From the IMG/VR virus record IMGVR_UViG_2579778753_000002, positions 1-11,595 of that record: 11,595 nt of DNA; one strand, written 5' to 3'. The position numbers and the translations under genes are program-made. This DNA is from a virus (Duplodnaviria; Heunggongvirae; Uroviricota; Caudoviricetes). A model generated the notes under the pieces. It saw nothing but the letters and a program-made list of their open reading frames with translations, did no database searches and had not been told where the DNA came from. Positions within the stretch are counted from its first letter, which is position 1, and every line of letters starts with the position of its first letter. This document shows, piece after piece, positions 1-11,595 of this stretch.

Positions 1-95
1 AGTTTGCTCCTGCCATAACGTGAAGAAGCAATGACCTGGTGGTCCGTGACTTCCCTACGCTGGCATTATCCAGATCAGGTGATACGGGTATTTCT
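1..95 (-). promoter_or_regulatory. thiM: 3' portion of the thiM TPP riboswitch / thiM 5' leader (thi-box 3' helices, P1 3' strand, SD), cut off from its 5' half by the island
   Basis: Reverse complement of 1-95 reads AGAAATACCCGTATCACCTGATCTGGATAATGCCAGCGTAGGGAAGTCACGGACCACCAGGTCATTGCTTCTTCACGTTATGGCAGGAGCAAACT. I recognise this from memory as the 3' two-thirds of the E. coli thiM thi-box leader ending at the SD (GGAG at 6-9, minus). The thiM ATG would lie immediately left of position 1, outside the window. Confidence 0.85.
82..95. repeat. att core / target-site direct repeat, left copy (ATACGGGTATTTCT)
   Basis: Exact 14-bp direct repeat with 11182-11195. Each copy is joined to one half of the thiM riboswitch sequence on its outer side and to island sequence on its inner side. 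Confidence 0.8.
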
Positions 96-154
96 TACTA
101 ATTTTTGTTATCAGTTGATAATTAATAAGTTTTTAAGCATATAAGAATTAAAAA

Positions 155-230
155 CCTCAAAAATGACCACACAACTGACCACACATTTCGTTGAAGCCCT
201 ACGAACAACGACGAACAATAACAAACAAAA
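155..230. repeat. Arm-type direct repeat (left), containing tandem TGACCACACA x2 and CGAACAA x2
   Basis: About 95% identical to 11031-11106 (4 differences over about 75 bp). In an excised circle the two copies would flank the core at roughly 60 and 85 bp, as integrase arm sites do in attP. Confidence 0.6.
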
Positions 231-466
231 GGGAAATTTGCTGGCAGTTTTGCTTAACCGTTATCATTTTTCGGCTATCCGCTATGAAGCTGGTGGATGA
301 TCACGGATAATCCGTTATGTGGATCCCCATATCGGCATCAGGCCCACCAGCGTGAAGCGTTTTTCATTTTTCGCGGGTATAAAAAATCGATGGGGCTGGC
401 AGTCCGGAAGACGTCAGGGTACAGAGATTTGACCCGCCCCTCCCTGTGCATGAGCACAATAAGTAA

Positions 467-490
467 CCGAAGGCGGAATTCCGCCCTCGG
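467..490 (-). terminator. Candidate intrinsic terminator for the leftward TerS-like/95-aa operon
   Basis: CCGAAGGCGG-AATT-CCGCCCTCGG: 10-bp GC-rich stem with one mismatch and a 4-nt loop. On the minus strand it is followed by TTACTTATTGT (T-rich). Confidence 0.4.
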
Positions 491-522
491 TGCTCACATA
501 TGAGAAACGATATTTCTTACAC

Positions 523-628
523 CGATACCCTTTATTTGGGTATCGCGAGTAAGCCCCAAAATCTGGGTGTTACTCTTACTACCCAAACTACGGGTAGTTT
601 CATAGTCGAGTTGCAGATCTGCAACTCG
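523..628. repeat. Cluster of three inverted repeats / palindromes in the island's terminal non-coding region
   Basis: 523-545 CGATACCC-tttattt-GGGTATCG (8-bp perfect stem). 585-600 AAACTAC-gg-GTAGTTT. 607-628 CGAGTTGCAGATCTGCAACTCG (perfect 22-bp palindrome centred on AGATCT/GATC). Confidence 0.6.
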
Positions 629-675
629 CCACCAGTTGCTAAGTGCATTTTTGCACTTTCGGTAATATCAACCAG

Positions 676-963
676 TTACCGCCGTAAGTGCTCCGGCTTC
701 CTCCACTGGTAAGTATTTTTCGCGCTCTCCCTCCGTTGTTGAGAACGGCGACGGTATGCCAGCAACTCAAGAACTCTGGTTCGTATGTTGCGCATATCCA
801 CGCCGTTAAGCTCAATACCGTCACGGCGCATTACCTCAGCCACCACACGCGCGTAATTTTCAGCGGTGACTGTATCCGGCTGCGCGGCCTGTTCGTCAGC
901 CAACTGGCTGATTCCACCAGCACAGCGGATTAATCGCAGTATTTCAGATTCGGTCATTATCAT
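676..963 (-). CDS. Hypothetical protein, 95 aa, Arg-rich basic C-terminus; translationally coupled to the upstream TerS-like gene
   Basis: ATG at 963-961 overlaps the TGA of the preceding ORF (ATGA overlap at 960-963). Ends in a basic tail (RRRSQQRRESAKNTYQWRKPEHLRR). No family recognised. Confidence 0.55.
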   Translation of the reverse strand: MIMTESEILRLIRCAGGISQLADEQAAQPDTVTAENYARVVAEVMRRDGIELNGVDMRNIRTRVLELLAYRRRSQQRRESAKNTYQWRKPEHLRR

Positions 964-1445
964 GCCTGTTTTGCGACCTCATTCACTACGTCATTTTTTA
1001 CCATCCGGCTGATAATCTGATTACGCAAATCGTCAATAATTGACTGCACTCTGTTTACTGCCATCGGTTTAAGCCCGGCATCACGTGCCAGAATATTGGG
1101 GAGTTTTGCCAGTTCCTCGCTTACGATTTCCCCCCATATAGCCATCTCTTTTCGCACATCATCGGCGGGTATGAGTTGCGCCGTTTCCTGTTCGAACCTG
1201 AGGCGCTCACGTTCGGACTGATACCAGGCCTTACGGTCATGTGGCTCCATTTCTTCCAGTGATGCCGGAACGGGAAGATCAAGAAAACAGGTCAGAATGT
1301 CAGTCACCCGATAGAGTTTTAGCTTGTCATGCCCTCCGGCTGGCTGGATGTTTTTCAGCCTTGCCGCCGCAGTCTGACGACATATTCCCGCTATCGCCGC
1401 CAGTTGATTAATGTTCAGCATCAGATTTTTCAGTTCTCGATCCAT
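960..1445 (-). CDS. Nu1-like small terminase-type HTH protein (candidate satellite TerS or Rpp-like packaging-redirection protein), about 161 aa
   Basis: The ORF-track start at 1532 is a TTG. I prefer the ATG at 1445-1443, preceded by GGAG. The N-terminus (MDRELKNLMLNINQLAAIAGICRQTAAARLKN...LYRVTDIL) has the layout of the lambda Nu1 winged-HTH DNA-binding domain, followed by a predicted helical region. Confidence 0.6.
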   Translation of the reverse strand: MDRELKNLMLNINQLAAIAGICRQTAAARLKNIQPAGGHDKLKLYRVTDILTCFLDLPVPASLEEMEPHDRKAWYQSERERLRFEQETAQLIPADDVRKEMAIWGEIVSEELAKLPNILARDAGLKPMAVNRVQSIIDDLRNQIISRMVKNDVVNEVAKQA

Positions 1446-1716
1446 ACCCGCTCCAGAATGTTTTAAACATGCATCTTGCGAACAACTTTCAGAAGAGGTC
1501 AAAAAATGCGCTATATGTTGAGCATAAAACAAGCAAAATTAACATGCCAAAAATAAAAATACTTAAAATTCAATACAATAGAAAGATGATGATGACGAAT
1601 GAAAATGCAAAAACTAGCCTTTTTCCGCGCCGCTCCCGCCCCGTGGCAGGCCACCTCACCGGGAGGACCCACCCAAAAAAGGCGACTGTCACTATTGTTT
1701 ATGCTCCATGAGCGAC

Positions 1717-1738
1717 AAAACCGCCCGCAGGCGGTTTT
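1717..1738 (-). terminator. Rho-independent terminator (usable in both directions) after the gpI-like gene
   Basis: AAAA-CCGCC-cgca-GGCGG-TTTT, 18 nt downstream of the gpI-like stop (1756). Confidence 0.7.
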
Positions 1739-1755
1739 ACATAAAACGTTTTGTA

Positions 1756-2397
1756 TCAGCGACCAATCACCACAATCTGGCCGCCATCCCCTTCATCTGC
1801 TGTGCTGATCTCTTGCGAAATCACCCGCGACCCGACGCGCATTTCACCGTACAGAACAGGCACAACATTGCCCTGGGCAACCATGTTATCCAGAGAGGAG
1901 AAATAGGTGTTCTGCTTACCGTTATCCGTGGTGCTGGCTGTTGCTGTGCTGGCTTTCGGTGCCAGCATCTGTGCAACACCACCAAGTGTCATCGCCGCCC
2001 CCATTGAAAAGAGAATGTCACTGAAAGCGATACTGATTCCTGGCATCCAGATTGCCGTAGCAATCAGCGCCGCACCAAGCACCGCCTGAAACACGCCGCC
2101 ACTTTTGGCACCAGCCAGACGCGGTACGATGTGGATCACGGCACCATTTTCCAGCGGTTCATTAAGACGGGCTGATAATTCGTTTTCGCCTGTATCACGC
2201 CCGGCAATACGCACCTGATACCAACCATCGCTCAGTTTCTGACGAAACGCTGGGATCTGCATGGCCAGCGCCCGGATGGCTTCGGCCCCCGTTTTCACAT
2301 GAAGATCGATGCGGCGGCCAAATCGTTGTAAATCCCCGTAAAGGCAGATGCGTGCCATGCCCGGTGACGCCAGAGGGAGTGTGTGCGTCGCTGCCAT
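1756..2397 (-). CDS. Lambda gpI-like tail tip assembly protein, 213 aa
   Basis: ATG start with an AGAGAGG RBS. The protein (MAATHTLPLASPGMARICLYGDLQRFGRRIDL...ADEGDGGQIVVIGR) matches my recollection of lambda tail assembly protein I almost end to end, with a shorter Gly/Ala-rich central region. Recalled, not searched. Confidence 0.65.
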   Translation of the reverse strand: MAATHTLPLASPGMARICLYGDLQRFGRRIDLHVKTGAEAIRALAMQIPAFRQKLSDGWYQVRIAGRDTGENELSARLNEPLENGAVIHIVPRLAGAKSGGVFQAVLGAALIATAIWMPGISIAFSDILFSMGAAMTLGGVAQMLAPKASTATASTTDNGKQNTYFSSLDNMVAQGNVVPVLYGEMRVGSRVISQEISTADEGDGGQIVVIGR

Positions 2398-2486
2398 TTG
2401 TCGGTATACCTCTCTCGTTTGCTCAGTTGTTCAGGAATATGGTGCGGCAGCTCGCCGCCCCACGTGTTCAAAGTACCGCCTTGTTG

Positions 2487-4400
2487 TCATGCTCCATTCG
2501 ATTTCAGCAATCCACGATAATCGAGGGCCGCGACACCTGCATCTATGCGCACCTTCCAGGCGACACCATCAACAGTAAAGCCCACCTGCTCCTCAAGATA
2601 TGGCGTATCCATACCATCAAGATAAGCGACTTCTATTGTGTCCATCCCCTTAGCTGCGGCTACATACCATTCCTTGCTATTGGCCTTATCAAGACGTGGC
2701 TCAACAATTACTTCTGCCATATCTTTCACAACGTTAATGATGCCGGGGTTCTGATTGATAGTACCCTCATCACCAACCGGAAAGACTGATGACGATGACA
2801 GAATGGCGCGACGCGCGGCAGATTCCAGCGCGGCAGGGACCAGAACAAAAGCAGGGGTAATATTCAGTGAGTCGCCGTTAGCATCCTCCTGGAGGCGCAT
2901 CAGCTTACGGGCTTCATCAAGCCCCACCATGTCCATATCCTTCGCAATAAGATTTTTATGATCGGCATGGAATAACGCTTTACCATCCGTAAACTTGCCG
3001 TTGCTGGTTAACAGGAGATAAACCAGATTGCCAACTGTTCTGGCGGCTGCGCGTCCCATCGCCATGGGGATTGTAGTTAACTGGGTCAGGTCATCGTTGA
3101 TAATGGCCTGACGGGTAACGGAAAAAATATTCCCGTACGTGGCCAGCGCAATAGGTACACCTTTATCGCTGGTGGTGATGTATTTATATTCCGCACCTTC
3201 CGGTACTTTATCCAGCTTTGAAAAACCATTCAGACCAACGCGCTTTGCTTCATGAAAGTTTGAAAGCGAACCGGTACGCGTCCATTTCTGGAACGTTTCG
3301 CCGCTGTCCTGCCAGCCTTTCAGTACAGATTTTTCAGCCCCACCAGCCAGAATATGAGAAAAATCACTGCTGCTGTGTGTAAAAGCCGCATTAACAACCT
3401 GCGAGCGATTAATAAAACCACTCACAGTGATACCACGATCAACCAGTGATGCCTGGGCCATTTCAAAAAGGCTCATCATCGCGTAAGGGTTGCCTCGTTC
3501 AGGGCGTTCATACCCAAGACGGGAATAAAGCCCCTGACGAATTGCATCACCTGTTATGTTTCCGTTTCCGGCATAGATATGAGGCGGAGTATTTTTATTG
3601 GATGGCGTGGACTCGCGCCCCAGCTCGTTCAACAGCTTTTCACGGGCCATTTCCGGTGTACATGATGCATCTTCCAGACACGCCATTTTGATCCCGTCGT
3701 AACGACTGCCGAACAGGCTAAACACTTCACTTATTCCATTGATGCGCTTCTGTTCATTACCAGCAATATTTGCCGCTCCCTGTGGCGGTGTAATCATTCC
3801 TTTAATGGTTTCCGGCATATGTAAAAAATCTCCTGTGCGCTTCGATTCAATTCGCGCCATTGCTCTGACGGATGGCAACAATTCATCAGCAAAACCGTGC
3901 TTAAGGCATTCTTTCCCGTCCATCCAGGTTTCATCTTCCAGCATGGCGGTAATTTCCTGTGCTGATTTGCCCGTTTTTCTGGCATAAGCAGGGACTAACA
4001 CGGTTTCCACCTTATCCAGCAAATCAGCATAATCACGCATATCACCAGCATTTCCGCCAGAGATACCCCACGGCTTATGTATCATCATCATGGCGTTTTC
4101 CGGCATCACAACACGATCGCCAGCCATTGCGACCACCGAAGCCATTGAAGCCGCAACACCATCGATATAAACCGTAATGTCTGCCGGATGATTCCGTAGC
4201 AGGTTATAGATGGCGATGCCTTCAAACACATCACCACCTGGTGAATGGATCCTCAGATTGATATGTGAAACATCGCCAAGGGCTTTCAGGTCTTCCGCGA
4301 ACTGCTTTGCAGTAACACCGAAGCCGCCAATCTCCTCATAGATAGATATATCCGCCGCTCCGCGAACATCCGCCGCCTTAATGGTGTACCAGCGATTCAT
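2487..4400 (-). CDS. Fusion of ClpP/S14-type prohead protease (N-terminal), linker/scaffold-like segment and HK97-fold major capsid protein (C-terminal), 637 aa
   Basis: N-terminus has ClpP-like motifs (HSPGGDVFEGIAIYN, GVAASMASVVAMAGD, MMMIHKPWG). The C-terminal 350 aa or so looks like a phage major capsid protein (ITPAFVLVPAALESAARRAI..., FTVDGVAWKVRIDAGVAALDYRG). ATG start with a GGGGGAA RBS. Long ORF with no internal stops. Confidence 0.85.
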   Translation of the reverse strand: MNRWYTIKAADVRGAADISIYEEIGGFGVTAKQFAEDLKALGDVSHINLRIHSPGGDVFEGIAIYNLLRNHPADITVYIDGVAASMASVVAMAGDRVVMPENAMMMIHKPWGISGGNAGDMRDYADLLDKVETVLVPAYARKTGKSAQEITAMLEDETWMDGKECLKHGFADELLPSVRAMARIESKRTGDFLHMPETIKGMITPPQGAANIAGNEQKRINGISEVFSLFGSRYDGIKMACLEDASCTPEMAREKLLNELGRESTPSNKNTPPHIYAGNGNITGDAIRQGLYSRLGYERPERGNPYAMMSLFEMAQASLVDRGITVSGFINRSQVVNAAFTHSSSDFSHILAGGAEKSVLKGWQDSGETFQKWTRTGSLSNFHEAKRVGLNGFSKLDKVPEGAEYKYITTSDKGVPIALATYGNIFSVTRQAIINDDLTQLTTIPMAMGRAAARTVGNLVYLLLTSNGKFTDGKALFHADHKNLIAKDMDMVGLDEARKLMRLQEDANGDSLNITPAFVLVPAALESAARRAILSSSSVFPVGDEGTINQNPGIINVVKDMAEVIVEPRLDKANSKEWYVAAAKGMDTIEVAYLDGMDTPYLEEQVGFTVDGVAWKVRIDAGVAALDYRGLLKSNGA

Positions 4401-4606
4401 TGTTCCCCCACCGATGCAAAACCATTCTGATTAAGCCAGGTGTTTACGGCATGTCTGACAATCTGCGCCACACCTGGTAATGGTTGGTCAGGATGATGAT
4501 TTATATGGTCGATCCTGTACTGCTTAAGGCGCATAACGGTCTGCGCATCCAGATGAACGGAACCACCTCTGGTATCACCTGTATTCAGGTCATTAATACA
4601 ACTCAC
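4397..4606 (-). CDS. Hypothetical small protein (69 aa), translationally coupled to the protease-capsid gene
   Basis: GTG start at 4606 preceded by AGAGGAAG. Its TGA overlaps the ATG of the capsid gene (ATGA at 4397-4400). Confidence 0.5.
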   Translation of the reverse strand: MSCINDLNTGDTRGGSVHLDAQTVMRLKQYRIDHINHHPDQPLPGVAQIVRHAVNTWLNQNGFASVGEQ

Positions 4607-4708
4607 AGCAACTTCCTCTGACTGACTAAACTATGCACATTATTGATCGATAAAAGTGGTAAATAAACATGTTTCTATCATAAAAACAGATTAATTAGAT
4701 TCAGACAC

Positions 4709-4731
4709 AAAAAAGCCGGATTTCTCCGGCT
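4709..4731 (-). terminator. Rho-independent terminator ending the replication operon / ori region
   Basis: On the minus strand: AGCCGGA-gaaa-TCCGGCT followed by TTTTTTG. Confidence 0.65.
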
Positions 4732-4867
4732 TCTGTCACTCGTTGCTTAAAACGGTATGTTATCCCCGTACGGATCATCATTCCCCGCCTGTTGTTTTGG
4801 TGTGCTTCGCTGTCATAGGCTTTATCTCACAGCAGTAAATTAAAATTTTTGCGTTTTAACCCTTCAC

Positions 4868-5090
4868 CTGTTCACCTTTTGATATTTTCTCTTTTAATTC
4901 ATAATGTTAAGGGGTGAACAGTTTCAAAAAAACTATTCACCAACTGTTCACCACTGTTCACCCTTGAAGCTCAATAAACAATCAAAAAGGTGAACAGTGA
5001 ATAGTTTGGTGAACAGTTCATAAATAACTGTTCACCCTATAATATACTGATATAAAAGATATTTATGACAGGGTGAACAGTGGTGAACAG
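4868..5090. repeat. Iteron array (at least 9 copies of GGTGAACAG / CTGTTCACC in both orientations) with an AT-rich stretch: candidate P4-type origin of replication
   Basis: Direct copies at 4913, 4989, 5009, 5072, 5082. Inverted copies at 4868, 4944, 4954, 5029. Degenerate copies at 4933 and 4997. AT-rich 5041-5069. Sits immediately 3' of the alpha-like gene. The motif contains TGTTCACC, which I recall as the P4 alpha-binding type I iteron. Confidence 0.75.
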
Positions 5091-5103
5091 TTATTCCATA
5101 AGT

Positions 5104-6921
5104 TTAATTTTTGCTATCGTCATTAGTGACCGATACACATGATGGCATCCAGTCTTCTGATTCCTCCGTCAGTGTCACGTTTGAACGCAAACCGTGCTTC
5201 GTTTTCCGTTTCATATACTCCCTGCCATATTCCGCCATTGCCCCCGGCATATCTTTACCGAAGCGCGTCAGTGTTACAGGTTTACCAAACCCATGTGCCC
5301 TCATATAAGCCAGATAGGCATGATAGAGATACCTGCGTGGGCTGAATGGCACAATTTCAGCATTACCCACTAACAGGCCATCACACATTACCGACGCCAT
5401 GAGATAGCCGCAGAAGTCCACCAGCGAATCCCCCTCTCGCTTTATCGCCAGTGCTTCTTCTGATTTCTGCTGCTCATATAACAGGCGTCTGGCTTCGTCC
5501 TGGTCAGCAAACCGTGTAAGCAGATGGCGAATCACTACCGCCAGCTCACCTTCTATTTTTTCCGCCAGCATTGGATCACGTTCGTTCTCCGGTACAACTT
5601 CCGAAAAATTGAATATCACCCGACGACGTGAGATCCCCCCGCTGCGGTCACTGAATGACATGGCGTTATTGTTAACCGCCAGCACTACTGCCGGAATACG
5701 CGTTGAGTAGGGGGCTTTGTGTTTCGGGTCAATTGCCACCTTGTCACCGCCTGTAATAGCCTTAATCCCTGCCCCATCACCAGCGTAGCGGGTCATATCC
5801 GGCATGATAATCAGCGAAAAGCCAACCACTAACGCGCGTTCCCTTGCATCTTCCAGCGCCTTCATGCTTGCCGATACTGTGTTGGCCTTACCCGCCAGCA
5901 TGGTGCAAATCTCCGCCATCACGCTTTTACCACTTCCCCCTGGACCTGTTACCTCAATGAATAACTGCCAGTCGTACCGGTTCGCCAGCACCATGAATAA
6001 TGCAGCCAGTACGCGATCCGCCTTGCGGTCATTCTCAGCCACCGAACGGCGTAACCACTTCCAGAAATTCGGCGCATGTGTTGCCAGCATTTCCCCCTCT
6101 GCTGGTGGGCTGAAAGGTAATTCACTGGCAATTAACAACCAGTCGTTTTTGTTATGCTCCCGAAAATTACCTGTTCTGGTATCAAATACCCCGTTACTGA
6201 ATCCAATCAGGTTACGGGCTGTATTCCCCATTACAGGCAAACTTAACTTCATGGTATCGACCGCCGATTTAATGGCGTTCTGCGAATAGCTGATCTCCGC
6301 ATCAATGAAAATCTGCGCCATAGCTCGCTGTAATTCTTTATCCTGTACTGGCTCCCATACAACGCCGTTGTAATGGTGAACAGTGTCAGAGTCAGCATGA
6401 ATCGCCAGTTCACCGCCATAATGTGCCAGGAGAACTTCGCCGCGTTGACTTGCTCCCATCTGGTTAAGCGCCAGTGATGAAGCGTTATCGTCTTTTACCC
6501 GCTCTTTTTTCTTTACAGGCAGTTCAACTACCTTTTTCTTTTCCTCCAGCTCTGCCCGTTCACGTTCCAGATATTCGCGCCAGTTCTCCCGTTTCTGGCT
6601 GTGCATTCCTTCAGGGTAATAATCAGCATCCCTGACACCTGCCGCTGCCAGTTTCTGCCCGATGGTATTAACAAGCCCCGGACGCAATAACCCCGCCTGA
6701 TAGAGACGCACGCGATAGCGTCCGTCCGGTACGATTTGCAGGTTGTCCAGTTCGGCAAGTTGTTGCTCTCCAAGCCAGACAGGAGGCACGTTATCGCCAG
6801 CCAGTCGCCCGTCCTGTTCCTGCCACTGCTTCGCATGTGCCCACGCATTACTACCCGCAAAAATGATGACTTCCGTCATTTTGTCACGCGGCTGGTGTTT
6901 TAAATTTGGCGCTTTTTTCAT
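5104..6921 (-). CDS. P4 alpha-like replication protein (D5_N-type domain plus SF3 helicase with Walker A GPGGSGKS; phage/plasmid primase P4-family C-terminal region)
   Basis: About 605 aa from the ATG at 6921 (GGAG RBS); the ORF track extends to a GTG at 6936. Walker A VTGPGGSGKS, Walker B-like LVVGFSLIIMPD. Adjacent to the iteron array. Confidence 0.85.
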   Translation of the reverse strand: MKKAPNLKHQPRDKMTEVIIFAGSNAWAHAKQWQEQDGRLAGDNVPPVWLGEQQLAELDNLQIVPDGRYRVRLYQAGLLRPGLVNTIGQKLAAAGVRDADYYPEGMHSQKRENWREYLERERAELEEKKKVVELPVKKKERVKDDNASSLALNQMGASQRGEVLLAHYGGELAIHADSDTVHHYNGVVWEPVQDKELQRAMAQIFIDAEISYSQNAIKSAVDTMKLSLPVMGNTARNLIGFSNGVFDTRTGNFREHNKNDWLLIASELPFSPPAEGEMLATHAPNFWKWLRRSVAENDRKADRVLAALFMVLANRYDWQLFIEVTGPGGSGKSVMAEICTMLAGKANTVSASMKALEDARERALVVGFSLIIMPDMTRYAGDGAGIKAITGGDKVAIDPKHKAPYSTRIPAVVLAVNNNAMSFSDRSGGISRRRVIFNFSEVVPENERDPMLAEKIEGELAVVIRHLLTRFADQDEARRLLYEQQKSEEALAIKREGDSLVDFCGYLMASVMCDGLLVGNAEIVPFSPRRYLYHAYLAYMRAHGFGKPVTLTRFGKDMPGAMAEYGREYMKRKTKHGLRSNVTLTEESEDWMPSCVSVTNDDSKN

Positions 6922-7217
6922 TTCTGCTCTCTCCACGCGGCAATCATGTTTTTCAGTTCCTGTAGTTTTTTATCAACATCCATACATGACACATGGTTAT
7001 TTCTGGAAGGCGGGATTTCCCGCCGGAATCTGCAAATAAAGATCTCCACGTTCAGCGAACTATGAAATGAATAGCCATCACGAATAAAATACACACGGTC
7101 AAACATCAGTTCTTTTACCGTTACTCTGTTACCGTTCTTATCCAGATAAATAGCGCCGGGGATAATTTTGGGGTGTGCATAACCGCTGGCAGTCAAGCCA
7201 GATATATATGTTCTCAT
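6918..7217 (-). CDS. Hypothetical protein (99 aa), translationally coupled to the alpha-like gene
   Basis: ATG start. Its TGA overlaps the ATG of the alpha-like gene (ATGA at 6918-6921). No family recognised. Confidence 0.55.
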   Translation of the reverse strand: MRTYISGLTASGYAHPKIIPGAIYLDKNGNRVTVKELMFDRVYFIRDGYSFHSSLNVEIFICRFRREIPPSRNNHVSCMDVDKKLQELKNMIAAWREQK

Positions 7218-7223
7218 GATTAT

Positions 7224-7544
7224 TTATCCCCGATTTGAATCAGTATTCGCTTTCTTTATGGCATTTAATGCATCTGTGGCATTTTCAATGGTGCACCGTA
7301 ACGAAATATCAAACTGCCCAAGCATTGCCAGTAACAAACCGATATTACCCATATCAATGCGCATGGCCTTTTCGTCATAGTCCTCATTTTCTGACGCATG
7401 CCACATCAGGCTACCAATTGACGCAATACCCATTGATATATTGTCAGTAGCCCCATCCGCAGCGGAATAAACCTTTTTAGCAATATCATGCTCACAGTTA
7501 AAATGCGGATTAATCAGGTACTGGTAATTGGTCATGTCAGGCAT
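7224..7544 (-). CDS. Hypothetical acidic protein (106 aa)
   Basis: ATG at 7544 preceded by AGGGGGGG. Ends 7 nt before the next gene in the same operon. No family recognised. Confidence 0.55.
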   Translation of the reverse strand: MPDMTNYQYLINPHFNCEHDIAKKVYSAADGATDNISMGIASIGSLMWHASENEDYDEKAMRIDMGNIGLLLAMLGQFDISLRCTIENATDALNAIKKANTDSNRG

Positions 7545-7740
7545 GGCACCCCCCCTGACGAATACGGGCGGCGAATACCATCACGCAGCCAGCCGGGGAT
7601 TGCTGGCGTGCTTCCTGTTCGCTGGTGGCCACGATGGTAATCACGCGCGGTTGTGCCGTGCTCAGGGCGATAAAACGCCAGATGTATTTATTCAGGTTGT
7701 GCGAGTCCCGCCCTTGCGGGTGTGTGGTATGATTTCTCAT
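7537..7740 (-). CDS. Possible small protein (67 aa), first gene of the replication operon
   Basis: ATG at 7740 with GAGG 7 nt upstream. Its stop overlaps the 106-aa start by 8 nt (ATGCCTGA). It is the C-terminal segment of a long, otherwise implausible 362-aa ORF. Confidence 0.35.
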   Translation of the reverse strand: MRNHTTHPQGRDSHNLNKYIWRFIALSTAQPRVITIVATSEQEARQQSPAGCVMVFAARIRQGGCHA

Positions 7741-7838
7741 AGCTGCCTCGATAATCTTGCTATCGTTGGTGGTTAGAAGCCCCGTTACTGCTCCTACAGT
7801 GCGGGGTTTCGTCGTTTCTGCACCTTGCATTAACAAGG

Positions 7839-7916
7839 TGTAAGTAACTTTATTTATAGGTGGCTTACATGTCAATGCTTTTATGTAAGACTTTTTATGT
7901 GTATATTGTCTTACAC
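7839..7916. promoter_or_regulatory. Divergent promoter/operator region with four GTAAG/CTTAC half-sites
   Basis: Half-sites at 7840, 7864, 7885, 7910, including CTTACAT-N12-ATGTAAG. Minus-strand promoter candidate: -35 TTGACA (7875-7870), 17-bp spacer, -10 TAAAGT (7852-7847). Plus-strand candidate -10 TATATT (7902-7907). Confidence 0.45.
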
Positions 7917-7936
7917 TTTCATTGAGAGGATTACAG

Positions 7937-8242
7937 ATGGCTACAGGTTCAAAAAACGCAAAATCACAATCACTGACAGCTCGGATCCCGCATGATGTTA
8001 TTGAAGGCATGGAATCCGTAAAACTGGACGGTGAAAGCAACGCCGGATTCATAGTAACCGCCATGCGCGGTGAAATCGCCCGCCGCCAGGCAGAAGGAAG
8101 CGGAGAAAACCTCCTGGTTTCTTCGCTCGATGCCCTAGCGCAGGTGGAAAAAATCGGAGTCAAAGCCGCCGAGGAGATCGGGCAACTCGTCACCGTCGCG
8201 CGTGAAGAACTCCAGCGACGCAAGGTCAAAGAGCAGGAATAG
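7937..8242 (+). CDS. Ribbon-helix-helix-like putative DNA-binding regulator (101 aa)
   Basis: ATG at 7937 with GAGAGGA 6 nt upstream (the ORF track's 7922 start is a TTG). N-terminal beta-strand-plus-helix pattern (SLTARIPHDVIEGMESVKL). Transcribed opposite to the rest of the island. Confidence 0.55.
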   Translation: MATGSKNAKSQSLTARIPHDVIEGMESVKLDGESNAGFIVTAMRGEIARRQAEGSGENLLVSSLDALAQVEKIGVKAAEEIGQLVTVAREELQRRKVKEQE

Positions 8243-8299
8243 CCACTATCAGCGCCATAGTTTGAGGAACGCAGGCGCATTGCTTTACAGGACAGCACC

Positions 8300-8479
8300 A
8301 TGAGCGACACAGAATCAACCAAAACACCATCACCAACTCGTAAGAGACGACGCAAAAATATAGCGCATGAACATGAATCAGAAAGATTCGCACCTTGTTC
8401 GTTTGCTCTTGAGAAATTCCTTAAAGAGCACAGGAAAAAGCTCTCGTTGCAAACCTTGGAACGAACCAAATCTGACTGA
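8300..8479 (+). CDS. Possible small basic protein (59 aa), downstream of the RHH-like gene
   Basis: ATG at 8300, in-frame TGA at 8477-8479, just below the 60-aa track cutoff. Lys/Arg-rich N-terminus (TRKRRRKNIAHEHE). Followed by a strong terminator. Confidence 0.35.
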   Translation: MSDTESTKTPSPTRKRRRKNIAHEHESERFAPCSFALEKFLKEHRKKLSLQTLERTKSD

Positions 8480-8546
8480 TCACATTGCCCACCAGCCGCA
8501 AATGTGGCATTGTTGGCGATGCGTTCAAGTTTAGTGTGTATCCATT

Positions 8547-8575
8547 GGCGACCGCCCCCGGTCGCCTTTGTTTTA
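8547..8575 (+). terminator. Rho-independent terminator of the rightward RHH-like operon
   Basis: GGCGACCG-cccc-CGGTCGCC (8-bp perfect stem) followed by TTTGTTTTAT. Confidence 0.8.
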
Positions 8576-8593
8576 TATGTCATATGCTCCCCT

Positions 8594-8818
8594 TTACGCT
8601 GCCTTACCTGAATTAACGCGGTCACGGCTTTGCACCCAGTCCATAACTTCGGAAAGCAACCAGCCTACAGAACGCCCCCCAAGATTACGGCGAGACGGAA
8701 AGCCCCCTTTCTTCTCCAGTTCGTAGCGTGTAGTACGGCTGACGCCTGTTAACTTACGACATTCATCCTCACGAATTACGCGATCTGTTAGTGATTGAAA
8801 TTGTGTATTTTGATTCAT
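8594..8818 (-). CDS. alpA: AlpA-family prophage transcriptional regulator (74 aa)
   Basis: ATG with GAGGGTG RBS. HTH region (CRKLTGVSRTTRYELEKKGGFPSRRNLGGRSVGW) matches the AlpA/MerR-like fold found next to P4-type integrases. Confidence 0.85.
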   Translation of the reverse strand: MNQNTQFQSLTDRVIREDECRKLTGVSRTTRYELEKKGGFPSRRNLGGRSVGWLLSEVMDWVQSRDRVNSGKAA

Positions 8819-8921
8819 AAAAACACCCTCGAACGTAACCGAACAAGGGCATCTTATTTACCATAGCAGTTGGTGCAATATTGGAAAAATAAACTTTATT
8901 CTAATTTATCGTTCTCCATGA

Positions 8922-9776
8922 TTAATTTTCATTAGATAACATTTTTCTTATTTTTTCTAAAGAATCGCTGCGCATTATTTTTTCTAAGAAGGGTTTTACA
9001 GTCTGAGCAATAGCAAAGGTGTCCTTTTCACCATCAGGATACAAAGATACGGCAAGCACCCCTAATGAAATTTTTCTATCTGTAGACAACTCCCAAGATA
9101 ATAAGTCAATTAATGGGATTATCTTATAATCAATAATTTTACGTCGTATGCTCTCCCAACTTCCTGCAATTGGTTTGTCTGGCTCAACAATTGAAAGTTC
9201 ACTACGCCATTTTGGTAATAGTTTTGTAAACGCTTCAATCAACTCATCATCTCTGTTATGTAGTAAGTCAACAGAAACAAGCATATTATCTAATGTATCA
9301 GAAAGGAGATTCACTGGTTCACGCATCACAGCCCAAAACATCCCATTATCTTCTGATATTAAACTTCCAACCATCTCATTATCTATGATGATTGGTTTAT
9401 CCTTCCAATATCCTCTTTCCGCAGTCAGTTTATTAATCATTGATATATCAAACCTTGTTACAGGTTTAATTCCATCATCATAACTTAGCTCAATTAACTT
9501 CGGTTGCACTTTATGGTCATATTCTTTTTGTTTATCACAAAACCAATCGTCTTCTTTCAGCTCTCCAAATGGATCCCCGTAATTATTATGCAACGGGTAT
9601 TCAGCACCAAACATAAATCCATATTCAGGCATCTCAGAATGTTTCATCGTTAAATCATCTTGTCGCCAATATAATTGGCGAAATAGATCTTTATCCGACA
9701 AGTTTTCTAGGCAATCATATTTGCCTAAATCAAATGACTTTGGTAAATCTTTTTTACTATTTACTTTTTTCGTCAT
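8922..9776 (-). CDS. Hypothetical protein (284 aa), AT-rich cargo gene between int and alpA
   Basis: Uninterrupted 855-nt ORF. Its ATG overlaps the int TGA (ATGA at 9773-9776). Visibly more AT-rich than the flanking int and alpA. No recognisable catalytic motif. Confidence 0.75.
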   Translation of the reverse strand: MTKKVNSKKDLPKSFDLGKYDCLENLSDKDLFRQLYWRQDDLTMKHSEMPEYGFMFGAEYPLHNNYGDPFGELKEDDWFCDKQKEYDHKVQPKLIELSYDDGIKPVTRFDISMINKLTAERGYWKDKPIIIDNEMVGSLISEDNGMFWAVMREPVNLLSDTLDNMLVSVDLLHNRDDELIEAFTKLLPKWRSELSIVEPDKPIAGSWESIRRKIIDYKIIPLIDLLSWELSTDRKISLGVLAVSLYPDGEKDTFAIAQTVKPFLEKIMRSDSLEKIRKMLSNEN

Positions 9777-10993
9777 TGTATCCCTCTCAATATCACAATA
9801 TTTTCATTATATCCTGCAATCATATCAAGACGCTCAACCCATAGATTCAGTGCGTCCCGTTTCGCCTGCAAATAGCGTGAATGGTTATAGGTTTTTTGCT
9901 GACCTGGCATCTGATGCGCTGTGATGTGCTCCACGATATGCGGATCGACACCTAAATCATTCAGCATAGTTGTAAACGTGTGTCGGAAATCATGCAGCGT
10001 CCAGTGTTCCTGCTTAAGCCGCTTATGCGCATTTCGTCCATATTGCGCCACCGTGGTATCTTTTTTCAGTTCGCCGAGTAATAACCCAGTGTGTGCGTTT
10101 TGCTCCACCAGCTTCTGAATGAACGGCAAAATACCATCAGGAATAGGTCGGAATATTGTTACCTTCGTTTTGCTGTGCTCTTTTGGCACTGTCCACAACA
10201 TTTCTTTCAGATCCCATTCTTTGATCTCTGAAAGTCTGATCTCTGCCGTTCTGCACCCGAACACAATTAACAAGCGCATTAACGCACTGTAATAGGGAGC
10301 GAACACATCACCATCAATAGCGCGTAGAATTTCTTTTAGTTCGCTGTTGCTGTGCACTCTCTCGCGGATTTCTGCTCTCTTACCCACATCAGTAACGATC
10401 AAATCGTCCAGGGCGTTGCTAAACGCGTAGCGCCGCCTGCGGCAAAACTTTAGCGCCTGTTTGCATGTCTGCATGACATGGCCCGCTGCTACTGGTGCTT
10501 TTTTTCGTACGCGGTCAAAACATGCGATCCACTGCCTTGTATCACACTTATCAAGGGGAATTGCCCCAATATGGCAAATGATGTGCTTATCCATACGCTG
10601 CACCAGCTTTATGTAATCTTTGCGGTTATCCTTCGCGTATTCCTCCAGCCAGTAGTTAATCGCTTCCTTCACCGTAACGGGTTTTAGTGCTTCCTGTACT
10701 GTGGCGCACAACTCATAACGGGGGTTTTTACCCTCAGCCAGCCATGCCCGGCACAGTGTGCGTTTTTCCCTTGCGGCTTTCAGCGACAATTCAGGGTAAG
10801 CCCCCAGCTTTAACCGCTCTGCGGCAACCTCACGGCCTCCCGTTCGGTACCGGAAATACCAGGTTAATTTGCCGCCCTTTGAGTGTTTAATCTCCAGCCC
10901 GCCCCCGTCGGAGTAAAAACGCTCTTTTTCTGCCTGGACAGCCGCCAATTTTTTTAACGTCGAATCGCTCAGTTTGTTTAGTGCTTTTCCCAC
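9773..10993 (-). CDS. int: P4-family tyrosine integrase (406 aa)
   Basis: GTG start with GAGGA RBS. N-terminal arm-binding-type region (GGLEIKHSKGGKLTWYFRYR...GAYPELSLKAAREKR). C-terminal catalytic region with HDFRHTF and a downstream Tyr. Adjacent to the att site. Confidence 0.9.
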   Translation of the reverse strand: MGKALNKLSDSTLKKLAAVQAEKERFYSDGGGLEIKHSKGGKLTWYFRYRTGGREVAAERLKLGAYPELSLKAAREKRTLCRAWLAEGKNPRYELCATVQEALKPVTVKEAINYWLEEYAKDNRKDYIKLVQRMDKHIICHIGAIPLDKCDTRQWIACFDRVRKKAPVAAGHVMQTCKQALKFCRRRRYAFSNALDDLIVTDVGKRAEIRERVHSNSELKEILRAIDGDVFAPYYSALMRLLIVFGCRTAEIRLSEIKEWDLKEMLWTVPKEHSKTKVTIFRPIPDGILPFIQKLVEQNAHTGLLLGELKKDTTVAQYGRNAHKRLKQEHWTLHDFRHTFTTMLNDLGVDPHIVEHITAHQMPGQQKTYNHSRYLQAKRDALNLWVERLDMIAGYNENIVILRGIQ

Positions 10994-11030
10994 TATCAGA
11001 TCCTCTTTTCAGTCCTCCAGCCTCAAAAAA

Positions 11031-11106
11031 CTGACCACACAACTGACCACACATTTTGTTGAAGCTCTACGAACAACGACGAACAACAACAAACAATAAA
11101 ACAGGA
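11031..11106. repeat. Arm-type direct repeat (right), partner of 155-230
   Basis: Same tandem TGACCACACA and CGAACAA sub-repeats. Lies in the int upstream region, about 40 bp from the int start. Confidence 0.6.
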
Positions 11107-11181
11107 TAATTTATTGTTTATCAAATACATACATAAACAACCACAAGCAACCCCGAACCACAAAAAACACTAAATGAGAAA

Positions 11182-11195
11182 ATACGGGTATTTCT
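11182..11195. repeat. att core / target-site direct repeat, right copy
   Basis: Identical to 82-95. Confidence 0.8.
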
Positions 11196-11238
11196 CAGCC
11201 TTCACGCAGAAGGGCACCCCGAGTCGTTTGGTTGCGAT
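11182..11238 (-). promoter_or_regulatory. thiM: 5' portion of the thiM TPP riboswitch aptamer (P1 5' strand, P2, P3, CUGAGA), separated from its 3' half
   Basis: Reverse complement reads CAACCAAACGACTCGGGGTGCCCTTCTGCGTGAAGGCTGAGAAATACCCGTAT, which I recognise as the 5' half of the thiM thi-box. Confidence 0.85.
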
Positions 11239-11322
11239 GATAAATCGCAGAGGAGGATGGTAATGTCCAGCGCACGCGTTGTAAACGAGGAAAAACGGCA
11301 GTTTTACAATCGCGTTAATAAA

Positions 11323-11595
11323 TTATTTGATATATGAATCCAGCACCTTCAGAACGACATCCAGATCTTCTTCACGTTTTAGCTCATCCCCCTGGTGAAC
11401 GATGTGTTCCGTCAGATGACCTTTAATCACTTCCCGCATCAGACCGTTTACCGCGCCACGGATAGCAGCAATCTGTTGTAAAACTGCAGCGCATTCGTGC
11501 GGCTCGTCGAGCATTTTCTTGAGCGCCACGACCTGGCCCTGAATCTTACTGGCACGCGCTTTCAGTTTCTGTTTATCACGGATTGTATGAGACAT
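11323..11595 (-). CDS. rcnR: RcnR, Ni/Co-responsive transcriptional repressor (CsoR/RcnR family), 90 aa, complete
   Basis: ATG at 11595. The protein ([64 protein letters not shown]...) matches my recollection of E. coli RcnR, including the His-Cys metal-site signature. Confidence 0.9.

Follow-up and report, generated by a model that had tools for sequence, protein, structure and literature searches.

Does transcription that starts at a host promoter reach the integrase gene of a phage satellite inserted downstream of it? The question is raised by a stretch of 11,595 nucleotides (hereafter the window, positions 1 to 11,595 of the IMG/VR virus record IMGVR_UViG_2579778753_000002, Caudoviricetes), in which the promoter of the Escherichia coli gene thiM and the 5' part of its TPP riboswitch face an integrase gene, int. 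The original prediction held that thiM transcripts read into int and the cargo gene coupled to it, tying the expression of both to a host metabolic promoter. Based on the analyses below, we favor, with about even confidence, an explanation in which this region is the attL junction of the island, int has an island promoter to which thiM read-through may add, and the downstream gene alpA is insulated from both.

A phage satellite inserted at thiM

Read on the minus strand, the window begins with rcnR (11595..11323), the host gene upstream of thiM, and ends one base before the thiM ATG. The 90-aa rcnR product belongs to Pfam family PF02583 (Trns_repr_metal, 3.5e-21), in agreement with the RefSeq annotation of identical DNA. 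The 11.1 kb of DNA inserted between the two genes is delimited by a 14-bp identity block, AGAAATACCCGTAT, which occurs at 11195..11182 in attL and again at 95..82 in attR, both on the minus strand; the crossover lies within this block. Joining 11322..11182 to 81..1 restores the K-12 rcnR-thiM intergenic sequence at 222 of 222 bases, and about 5,300 of the 5,426 complete E. coli genomes match the window only up to 11182, the point at which they carry an annotated TPP riboswitch. The region 10994-11322 represents the attL junction of a phage satellite of the Gram-negative PICI type, 11.1 kb long and belonging to the EcCI224 family, which entered the E. coli thiM TPP riboswitch by site-specific recombination at the three-way junction of the aptamer.

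The island has the gene set of a PICI, encoded entirely on the minus strand. Besides int (10993..9773) and alpA (8818..8594), Pfam searches identified a D5-type primase (6936..5104), a ClpP-like protease fused to the major capsid protein (4400..2487), and a small-terminase-like protein with a DUF1441 domain (1532..960). The co-directional int, alpA, and primase genes are those by which Fillol-Salom et al. (2018) recognize Gram-negative PICIs, and the 11.1 kb between the directly repeated att core copies falls within the size range of these elements (ca. 8-15 kb). Directly after the primase ORF, at 4890-5105, is a cluster of GGTGAACAGTT direct and inverted repeats, a candidate for the iteron-bearing replication origin that PICIs have immediately 3' of the replication gene. 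An Rfam match to MIR1508 at 4930-5019 was dismissed as a chance match to the palindromes of these iterons.

A PICI with the same att core, EcCI224 of strain Ecol_224, was listed by Fillol-Salom et al. (2018, ISME J; PMC6092414, Table S1) with a size of 10.6 kb and the location "frmR-thiM", frmR being rcnR. The two elements share the core AGAAATACCCGTAT, the location, the size class (10.6-11 kb) and, as in other Gram-negative PICIs, a co-oriented backbone of int, alpA, and pri. In RefSeq, the right end of the window, at attR, is matched best by strain Ecol_224 as well (99.8%), and by these sequence matches the island and its att core are already catalogued as EcCI224. In that listing, however, the site is given only as intergenic, and neither its position within the aptamer nor the thiM promoter facing int is mentioned. 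The islands found at this site also differ from the listed one in being mosaics, which combine a common integration module and both att arms with different late regions and have two kinds of ORF after int.

An int gene was found at the thiM junction in 72-76 of the 5,426 complete E. coli genomes; carriers include Ecol_224, SMS-3-5, C21, and the ST131 strain 751. Searches of a one-genome-per-species collection did not reveal the element outside E. coli: no relative of the integrase was confirmed among the contigs, and an exact 20-mer spanning the attL junction returned five matches, all in unrelated MAGs and at about the number expected by chance. Literature searches combining thiM with satellite, PICI, or rcnR retrieved no relevant report, and those for an integrase targeting a riboswitch found none, the nearest case being a phage att site in ffs. 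With the att site of a catalogued PICI placed at a riboswitch three-way junction, the structured-RNA targets of integrases extend beyond tRNA, tmRNA, and 4.5S RNA.

A split TPP aptamer

The host-derived thiM leader retained at attL is 69 nt long (11182..11250, minus strand) and identical to that of K-12. Its distal part, 11231..11182, corresponds to the first 50 nt of the 97-nt riboswitch annotated by PGAP in K-12 and comprises the 5' strand of P1, P2, P3, the J3-2 segment CUGAGA, the 3' strand of P2, and GUAU, the break falling at the three-way junction. The remainder lies at attR (1..95, minus strand), where the second core copy (95..82) is followed by P4/P5, the 3' strand of P1, and the thiM expression platform, which runs to the last base ahead of the ATG. 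The attL half is thus the pyrimidine-sensor half only. Because the pyrophosphate-sensing P4/P5 arm is missing, the 5' fragment cannot be a TPP aptamer, which bears out the original view that this half alone was unlikely to bind TPP.

Rfam searches gave a consistent picture. The attL fragment had no match even at E<=1, and the attR fragment yielded a 3'-half match to RF00059 (169..35) of 33.3 bits, below the gathering score of 54.3. Neither fragment therefore qualifies as a member of RF00059, whereas the intact element is present in the genomes with an empty site. The possibility that the island supplies the missing half of the aptamer at either junction was rejected on the basis of the same search. 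Of the intact E. coli thiM riboswitch (RF00059; PMC5499598), the first 50 nt are retained on the host side of attL, behind the genuine thiM promoter. The split at the three-way junction leaves two pieces of aptamer that both score below the Rfam threshold, and thiM keeps its expression platform and Rho element at attR.

The thiM promoter and the leader of int

The thiM promoter (11257..11285, minus strand) consists of a -35 hexamer TTTACA (11285-11280), a 17-nt spacer, and a -10 hexamer TACCAT (11262-11257). It is the sole consensus promoter match in the region and also the top-scoring site with a position weight matrix (PWM; 10.7 bits). The work of Bastet et al. (2017; PMC5499598) numbers thiM from its transcription start site, with the AUG at U152 and the ribosome-binding site at G142, and primes in vitro transcription with CUGC. 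Mapped onto the window through K-12, this numbering places the start 7 nt after the -10 hexamer, at 11250, which is the first base of a CUGC. From there, a leader of 257 nt, comprising 69 host and 188 island nucleotides, extends to the GTG of int, so that the roughly 240 bp originally estimated was about right. The thiM promoter, the half-aptamer identical to K-12, the arm repeat, and the int ORF were likewise all located on the minus strand, as had been described.

The island part of this leader (10994..11181, minus strand; 44% T, 9.6% C) is the P' arm of attP. Its conservation among island variants is 99%, the differences being concentrated at 11150-11095. Within it, a 70-nt arm repeat (11027..11096, minus strand), invariant in four island variants, is 94% identical to a second copy at 228..159. 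The latter lies in the right end of the island (96..303, minus strand), which represents the P arm of attP and is conserved in every one of the mosaic variants. Each arm repeat holds two tandem copies of GTTGTTCGT and two of TGTGTGGTCAGT; judged by their sequence and arrangement, these motifs are probable arm-type binding sites for Int and/or AlpA. A comparable doubled motif has been described in related PICIs (PMC10111431), the helper-embedded PICIs, where it likewise stands on either side of the attP centre. The core itself is flanked by an imperfect inverted repeat, TGAGAAA / TTTCTCA (11175..11197, minus strand), which probably represents a pair of core-type integrase sites. No site matching the IHF consensus was found in either att arm.

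The integrase gene and its candidate promoter

The int gene (9773..10993, minus strand) encodes a 406-aa tyrosine recombinase with an arm-binding domain (PF13356, 1.9e-17; PF00589, 8.1e-17). Its GTG start at 10993 is the one chosen by PGAP and is preceded by GAGGA 7 nt upstream. The translation contains the catalytic residues of tyrosine recombinases (R, HxxR, H, and Y) within GCRTAE, HDFRHT, AHQ, and TYNHSRY.

An island promoter for int must exist, since Int is needed from the incoming circle before the thiM junction forms; with int expressed before that junction exists, the host promoter cannot be the sole one. The best predicted candidate (11095..11124, minus strand) has TTGATA, a 17/18-nt spacer, and TGtTTTATT, and reaches 8.4 bits, a score at the 99.98th percentile for the window. 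Located in the P' arm and directly adjoining the arm repeat, it is also the best int-directed site in the reconstructed attP. Its weak -10 element has diverged in the 94%-identical L002/L003 variants. An alternative pair of hexamers consists of TTGTTT, a 16-nt spacer, and AACAAT, the last of which reads TATATT in the variants and looks better there. The thiM promoter outscores every island site (10.7 vs 8.4 bits). A hybrid promoter spanning the junction in attL or attP was also considered and discarded, there being none among the top PWM sites. In a related element, EcCICFT073, the region upstream of int was cloned as a Pint-lacZ fusion whose expression was unaffected by AlpA (PMC6092414).

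Search for terminators and Rho sites before int

An intrinsic terminator is a stable, G+C-rich hairpin directly before a U-tract. Two terminator scans were run, one with a consensus and one with a home-made score of the d'Aubenton-Carafa type applied to every hairpin and U-tract. The consensus scan found no terminator from 11595 to 10700. With the home-made score, which was calibrated on three controls only, every site between 11262 and 10960 was at -18 or lower, as compared with +25 to +36 for the three textbook terminators used as controls. Only four minus-strand sites in the whole window had positive scores (+6 to +32), none of them in the leader. The original observation that no terminator precedes int thus held when terminator prediction was applied.

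Two hairpins of the leader illustrate this result. The retained P2/P3 stem followed by UUUUCUCAUUU scored d = -23, and the junction creates a new 7-bp hairpin between TGAGAAA and the island TTTCTCA (-5.1 kcal/mol), which is followed by the U-rich tract UUUAGUGUUUUUU and scored d = -35; both are far from terminator-like. The leader as a whole did not fold more stably than shuffled sequences (z = -1.25 and +0.13), and no special RNA structure upstream of int is therefore proposed.

A rut site is an unstructured stretch of about 80 nt, rich in C and poor in G. By composition, which was the only property considered, no such stretch occurs in the leader: the region 11181..10994 contains 9.6% C and 26.6% G, its C/G ratio ranges from 0.26 to 0.65 in 78-nt windows, and over much of its length this ratio does not exceed the 5th percentile of the strand. 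Rho loading on a leader RNA so poor in C and rich in G is unlikely. Since the 257-nt leader contains neither a terminator-like nor a rut-like site, run-on of thiM transcripts into int is possible, and from its sequence we consider such read-through plausible. The several weak hairpins of the leader and the U-rich tracts behind them could nevertheless pause or partly terminate RNA polymerase, and elongation could be blocked by Int/AlpA complexes, or by H-NS on this DNA of 64% A+T.

A cargo slot and a probable terminator before alpA

Between int and alpA lies a 284-aa ORF with a DUF6387 domain (8922..9776, minus strand; PF19924, 4.6e-31), whose ATG overlaps the TGA of int (ATGA). This overlap is kept in other carriers, in line with the translational coupling first proposed. 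The slot after int holds the DUF6387 gene in about 50 carriers and an unrelated ORF of 259-264 aa in about 26, the two kinds of product being only 15-19% identical in a forced alignment. "Cargo" is thus a fair word for these genes. In carriers with the other ORF, int is 94% identical at the nucleotide level, and the overlap between the ORF and the int stop is 4 or 8 nt. Neither cargo ORF had a match in PADLOC, NCBIfam, or PDB, and the only PHROG match was to a group of unknown function. A DUF6387 gene also adjoins alpA in the Klebsiella island ICEKp258.2. SEN1998 of ROD21 islands had been considered as a further DUF6387 protein and was rejected, being an AlpA-like directionality factor.

Directly before the ATG of alpA is a terminator-like hairpin followed by U5 (8819..8855, minus strand; d = +6), one of the four positive minus-strand sites. 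The hairpin itself (8855..8820) has a folding energy of -17.6 kcal/mol (z = -4.7), and its 3' arm contains the Shine-Dalgarno sequence of alpA. It is conserved behind different cargo genes: the islands with the other ORF show a compensatory C-G to U-A pair as well as a lengthened U-tract, and two further changes, each on one side only, improve the pairing. This pattern suggests that the hairpin is likely the 3' end of the int-cargo transcription unit.

The alpA gene (8594..8818, minus strand) encodes a 74-aa homologue (PF05930, 4.8e-16) of the PICI master activator and excision factor, a role taken from PMC6092414. In a related PICI, overexpression of AlpA alone leads to uncontrolled replication (PMC6092414). 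If int and the cargo gene form a unit largely insulated from this master activator, as seems probable, a constitutive input into the unit from either promoter would be tolerable.

Comparison with other integrase arrangements

The original prediction presented the host promoter facing int as being aimed at int and the cargo gene, which gives this layout more weight than it deserves. In a survey by Panis et al. (2010, PLoS Genet; PMC2951348), a target followed by a co-oriented integrase gene was the commonest arrangement, found for 736 of 1,273 tRNA-adjacent integrases (58%), with the int promoter inside attL. The same work showed that intS of KplE1 (CPS-53) has a dedicated promoter overlapping attL and repressed by Int and the directionality factor. 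The present island shares this "STI" arrangement, its target lying upstream of, and co-oriented with, int, and the region upstream of int being the attL arm with arm-type repeats. Such a layout predicts an int promoter placed over the sites of the recombination proteins, negative autoregulation, and excision set by a separately transcribed directionality factor. Unlike in KplE1, the target is not a tRNA gene but a riboswitch within the leader of an mRNA, the element does not restore its target, and the int promoter and its autoregulation are predicted.

The helper-embedded PICIs (PMC10111431) offer a second comparison. They too lie inside, and co-oriented with, a transcription unit, so that a resident promoter can read into the satellite. 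In contrast to these elements, which interrupt a prophage late operon and for which the timing provides a clear regulatory logic, the unit interrupted here is a chromosomal housekeeping leader with no known tie to helper infection.

Nor does the available knowledge of thiM regulation support a link to thiamine. According to Bastet et al. (PMC5499598), TPP control of thiM takes two routes, one at translation via the intact aptamer and the other via a Rho element located in thiM codons 20-34; a transcriptional fusion carrying six thiM codons was not repressed by TPP. The claim that int and cargo expression is tied to a host metabolic promoter was therefore overstated: attL has no intact aptamer, and the Rho element lies about 11 kb away, at attR. 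With both elements absent from attL, any read-through would be constitutive. In sum, read-through from thiM into int would be neither unusual in kind nor thiamine-linked.

Which promoter feeds int?

Taken together, these elements suggest a model in which int would be transcribed from an island promoter in the P' arm. Because the candidate promoter abuts the arm repeats, Int and AlpA probably repress it, by analogy with intS of KplE1. Once the island is integrated, int could also be entered by transcripts that start at the co-oriented thiM promoter. A transcript from either promoter would span int and the overlapping cargo ORF and stop for the most part at the hairpin before alpA. The thiM contribution would be constitutive, additive to that of the island promoter, and not responsive to thiamine; it would supply basal Int, while excision would still be gated by AlpA. 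Should thiM transcripts indeed feed int and the cargo gene, the island would receive a steady basal level of integrase and of the variable-gene product, independent of the satellite's own control. With excision then gated by AlpA alone, the current view of PICI lysogeny would be refined without being changed.

The strongest competitor, which we regard as a real if somewhat doubtful alternative, is that int is driven essentially only by its own P'-arm promoter, following the KplE1 intS paradigm, and that thiM transcripts are negligible at int. Several circumstances might bring this about: the thiM promoter may be weak, the U-rich tracts may cause pausing or partial termination, or Int, AlpA, or nucleoid proteins bound at attL may act as a roadblock. 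Co-orientation would then be a by-product of att geometry. Integration logically requires an island promoter, promoter-like sites do stand next to the arm repeats in the P' arm, the EcCICFT073 Pint fusion was made from island DNA, and several weak pairs of hairpin and U-tract occur in the leader. However, none of these pairs is terminator-like, the maximum being -18 as against +6 or more for real candidates, the C-poor and G-rich RNA makes Rho loading unlikely, and it is the thiM promoter that has the higher score (10.7 bits, compared with an island maximum of 8.4). A further reading places the obstacle at the junction itself, where the P2/P3 stem or the new hairpin, together with the U-rich tracts, would halt most thiM transcripts at about 11185-11160 and act as a terminator or attenuator. 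The U-tracts after both hairpins do score 3.3-4.7, and the new hairpin is present in both the MFE and the centroid folds. Yet the stems, at -5 to -10 kcal/mol over 23-39 nt, are either weak or interrupted, their terminator scores of -20 to -35 are far under those of the controls, and the leader as a whole is no more structured than its shuffled versions, which makes a terminator at the junction very improbable.

At the opposite end, capture of the thiM promoter might be a selected function, the host promoter being the main driver of int and cargo once the island is integrated. On excision, int would be read from across attP, and the level of int and cargo expression would report the integration status. 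The co-orientation, the lack of a terminator, and the intact thiM promoter in all four carrier junctions aligned would fit such a function, as would the translational coupling after int, kept across unrelated cargo genes; the helper-embedded PICIs provide a precedent for the use of a host promoter in cis (PMC10111431). Selected capture nonetheless appears quite improbable. The same int module cannot need thiM before integrating, and other E. coli PICIs occupy intergenic or 3'-end sites without such a promoter (PMC6092414, Table S1). There is also no sign of selection on read-through, since orientation is dictated by the att sites, with a prior chance of about half or more (58%, PMC2951348), and the host-side promoter sequence is unchanged in the four carriers. 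An island promoter with a possible thiM supplement therefore remains our preferred reading of attL.

Consequences for thiMD at attR

In our view, the question of how thiMD is transcribed on the attR side is more interesting than that raised by attL. In about 1.4% of complete E. coli genomes, thiMD is severed from its promoter and its TPP sensor. A terminator-like hairpin is located upstream of attR (491..466), and no sigma-70-like site aimed at thiM exceeded 4.7 bits in the last 235 nt. The last ~210 nt are conserved in all island variants, and thiM and thiD are annotated as intact in the carriers inspected. The thiD gene is needed for de novo thiamine synthesis.

One may speculate that integration has the effect of swapping promoters, reversibly, in thiamine metabolism. 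The island would gain the constitutive thiM promoter for int and its variable cargo, while thiMD would lose its promoter and a working aptamer, leaving the thiMD of carriers blind to TPP and dependent on leakage from the island until excision restores control. A riboswitch aptamer, a conserved structured RNA other than a tRNA, would then be an integrase target that carries a regulatory cost or benefit for the host. As a complete scenario, this swap seems unlikely to us.

Folding predictions give some indication of the state in which thiM is left. The predicted fold of attR places the thiM expression platform in the ligand-free ON helix, in which GGGAAG pairs with CUUCUU. With short 5' extensions, the Shine-Dalgarno sequence is predicted to be about as open as in the native apo leader.

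A variable slot and a conserved hairpin between int and alpA

The position directly downstream of int is occupied by different genes in islands inserted at the thiM site. This slot corresponds to 8922-9776 in the window, and to L002:10624-11403 and L003:10625-11419 in two variants of the island. Some islands have a DUF6387 gene there, and others encode unrelated proteins of about 260 aa. Whatever its content, the slot ORF always overlaps the stop codon of int. Comparison of the slot ORFs with known defence families yielded no match. In the Klebsiella island ICEKp258.2, a DUF6387 gene also adjoins alpA, which encodes the PICI master activator.

Between the slot and alpA, a stable hairpin followed by a U-tract was found on the minus strand of the window (8819-8855), as well as in L002 (11452-11500) and L003 (11468-11518). 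The U-tract ranges from U5 to U8 across the three islands and is directly followed by the alpA start codon, the alpA Shine-Dalgarno sequence being contained in the 3' arm of the hairpin. This structure is maintained behind two unrelated cargo genes and displays a compensatory change, C-G to U-A, between the window and the two variants. It looks like a terminator or a translational lock acting on alpA, and this predicted barrier raises the question of the route by which a helper phage obtains alpA expression.

Other regions of the island

The minus-strand ORF at 7537-8625 (362 aa) may not be a single real gene. It has no Pfam match, and its similarity to a phage "transcriptional repressor" PHROG is limited to the last 90 residues. 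In the near-identical E. coli strain C21, the PGAP annotation of the same stretch instead has a truncated pseudogene, an Icd-like gene and, on the opposite strand, a YlcI/YnfO gene.

Directly 3' of the primase ORF, copies of GGTGAACAGTT in both direct and inverted orientation are densely packed at positions 4890-5105; this cluster is probably the PICI replication origin. A weak Rfam match to MIR1508 (4930-5019) was rejected as a chance likeness to the palindromes of this cluster. A strong terminator-like site occurs at 4730..4715.

The late region of islands at the thiM site is a mosaic. In the window, a single minus-strand ORF of 637 aa (2487-4400) encodes a ClpP-like prohead protease domain joined to a major capsid protein domain, whereas in the sister island L001 capsid, protease, portal and terminase are each encoded separately, and another, L005, encodes a capsid and a decoration protein.

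The thiM junction and the rcnR-thiM spacer

At attR (window 1-500, minus strand), thiMD is cut off from its own promoter and from half of the TPP aptamer. A terminator-like hairpin lies upstream of thiMD (491..466, minus strand), and no good sigma-70 site directed at thiM was found within 235 nt on this side. Folding predicts the remaining thiM expression platform to be in the ON state. Both thiM and thiD are annotated as intact in the carriers inspected, the island being present in about 1.4% of E. coli genomes.

The right end of the island (96-405, minus strand) has partial matches in 345 E. coli genomes (E<=1e-60), far exceeding the ca. 76 with int at thiM; part of this segment is probably common to PICIs at other sites. 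In E. coli O157:H7 genomes (L004:16079-18351) the TPP riboswitch is intact, but another insertion, of about 2.3 kb, separates it from rcnR. This insertion contains a gene for an outer-membrane protein, a hypothetical gene and an HTH-like fragment, so that the rcnR-thiM spacer varies in more than one way.
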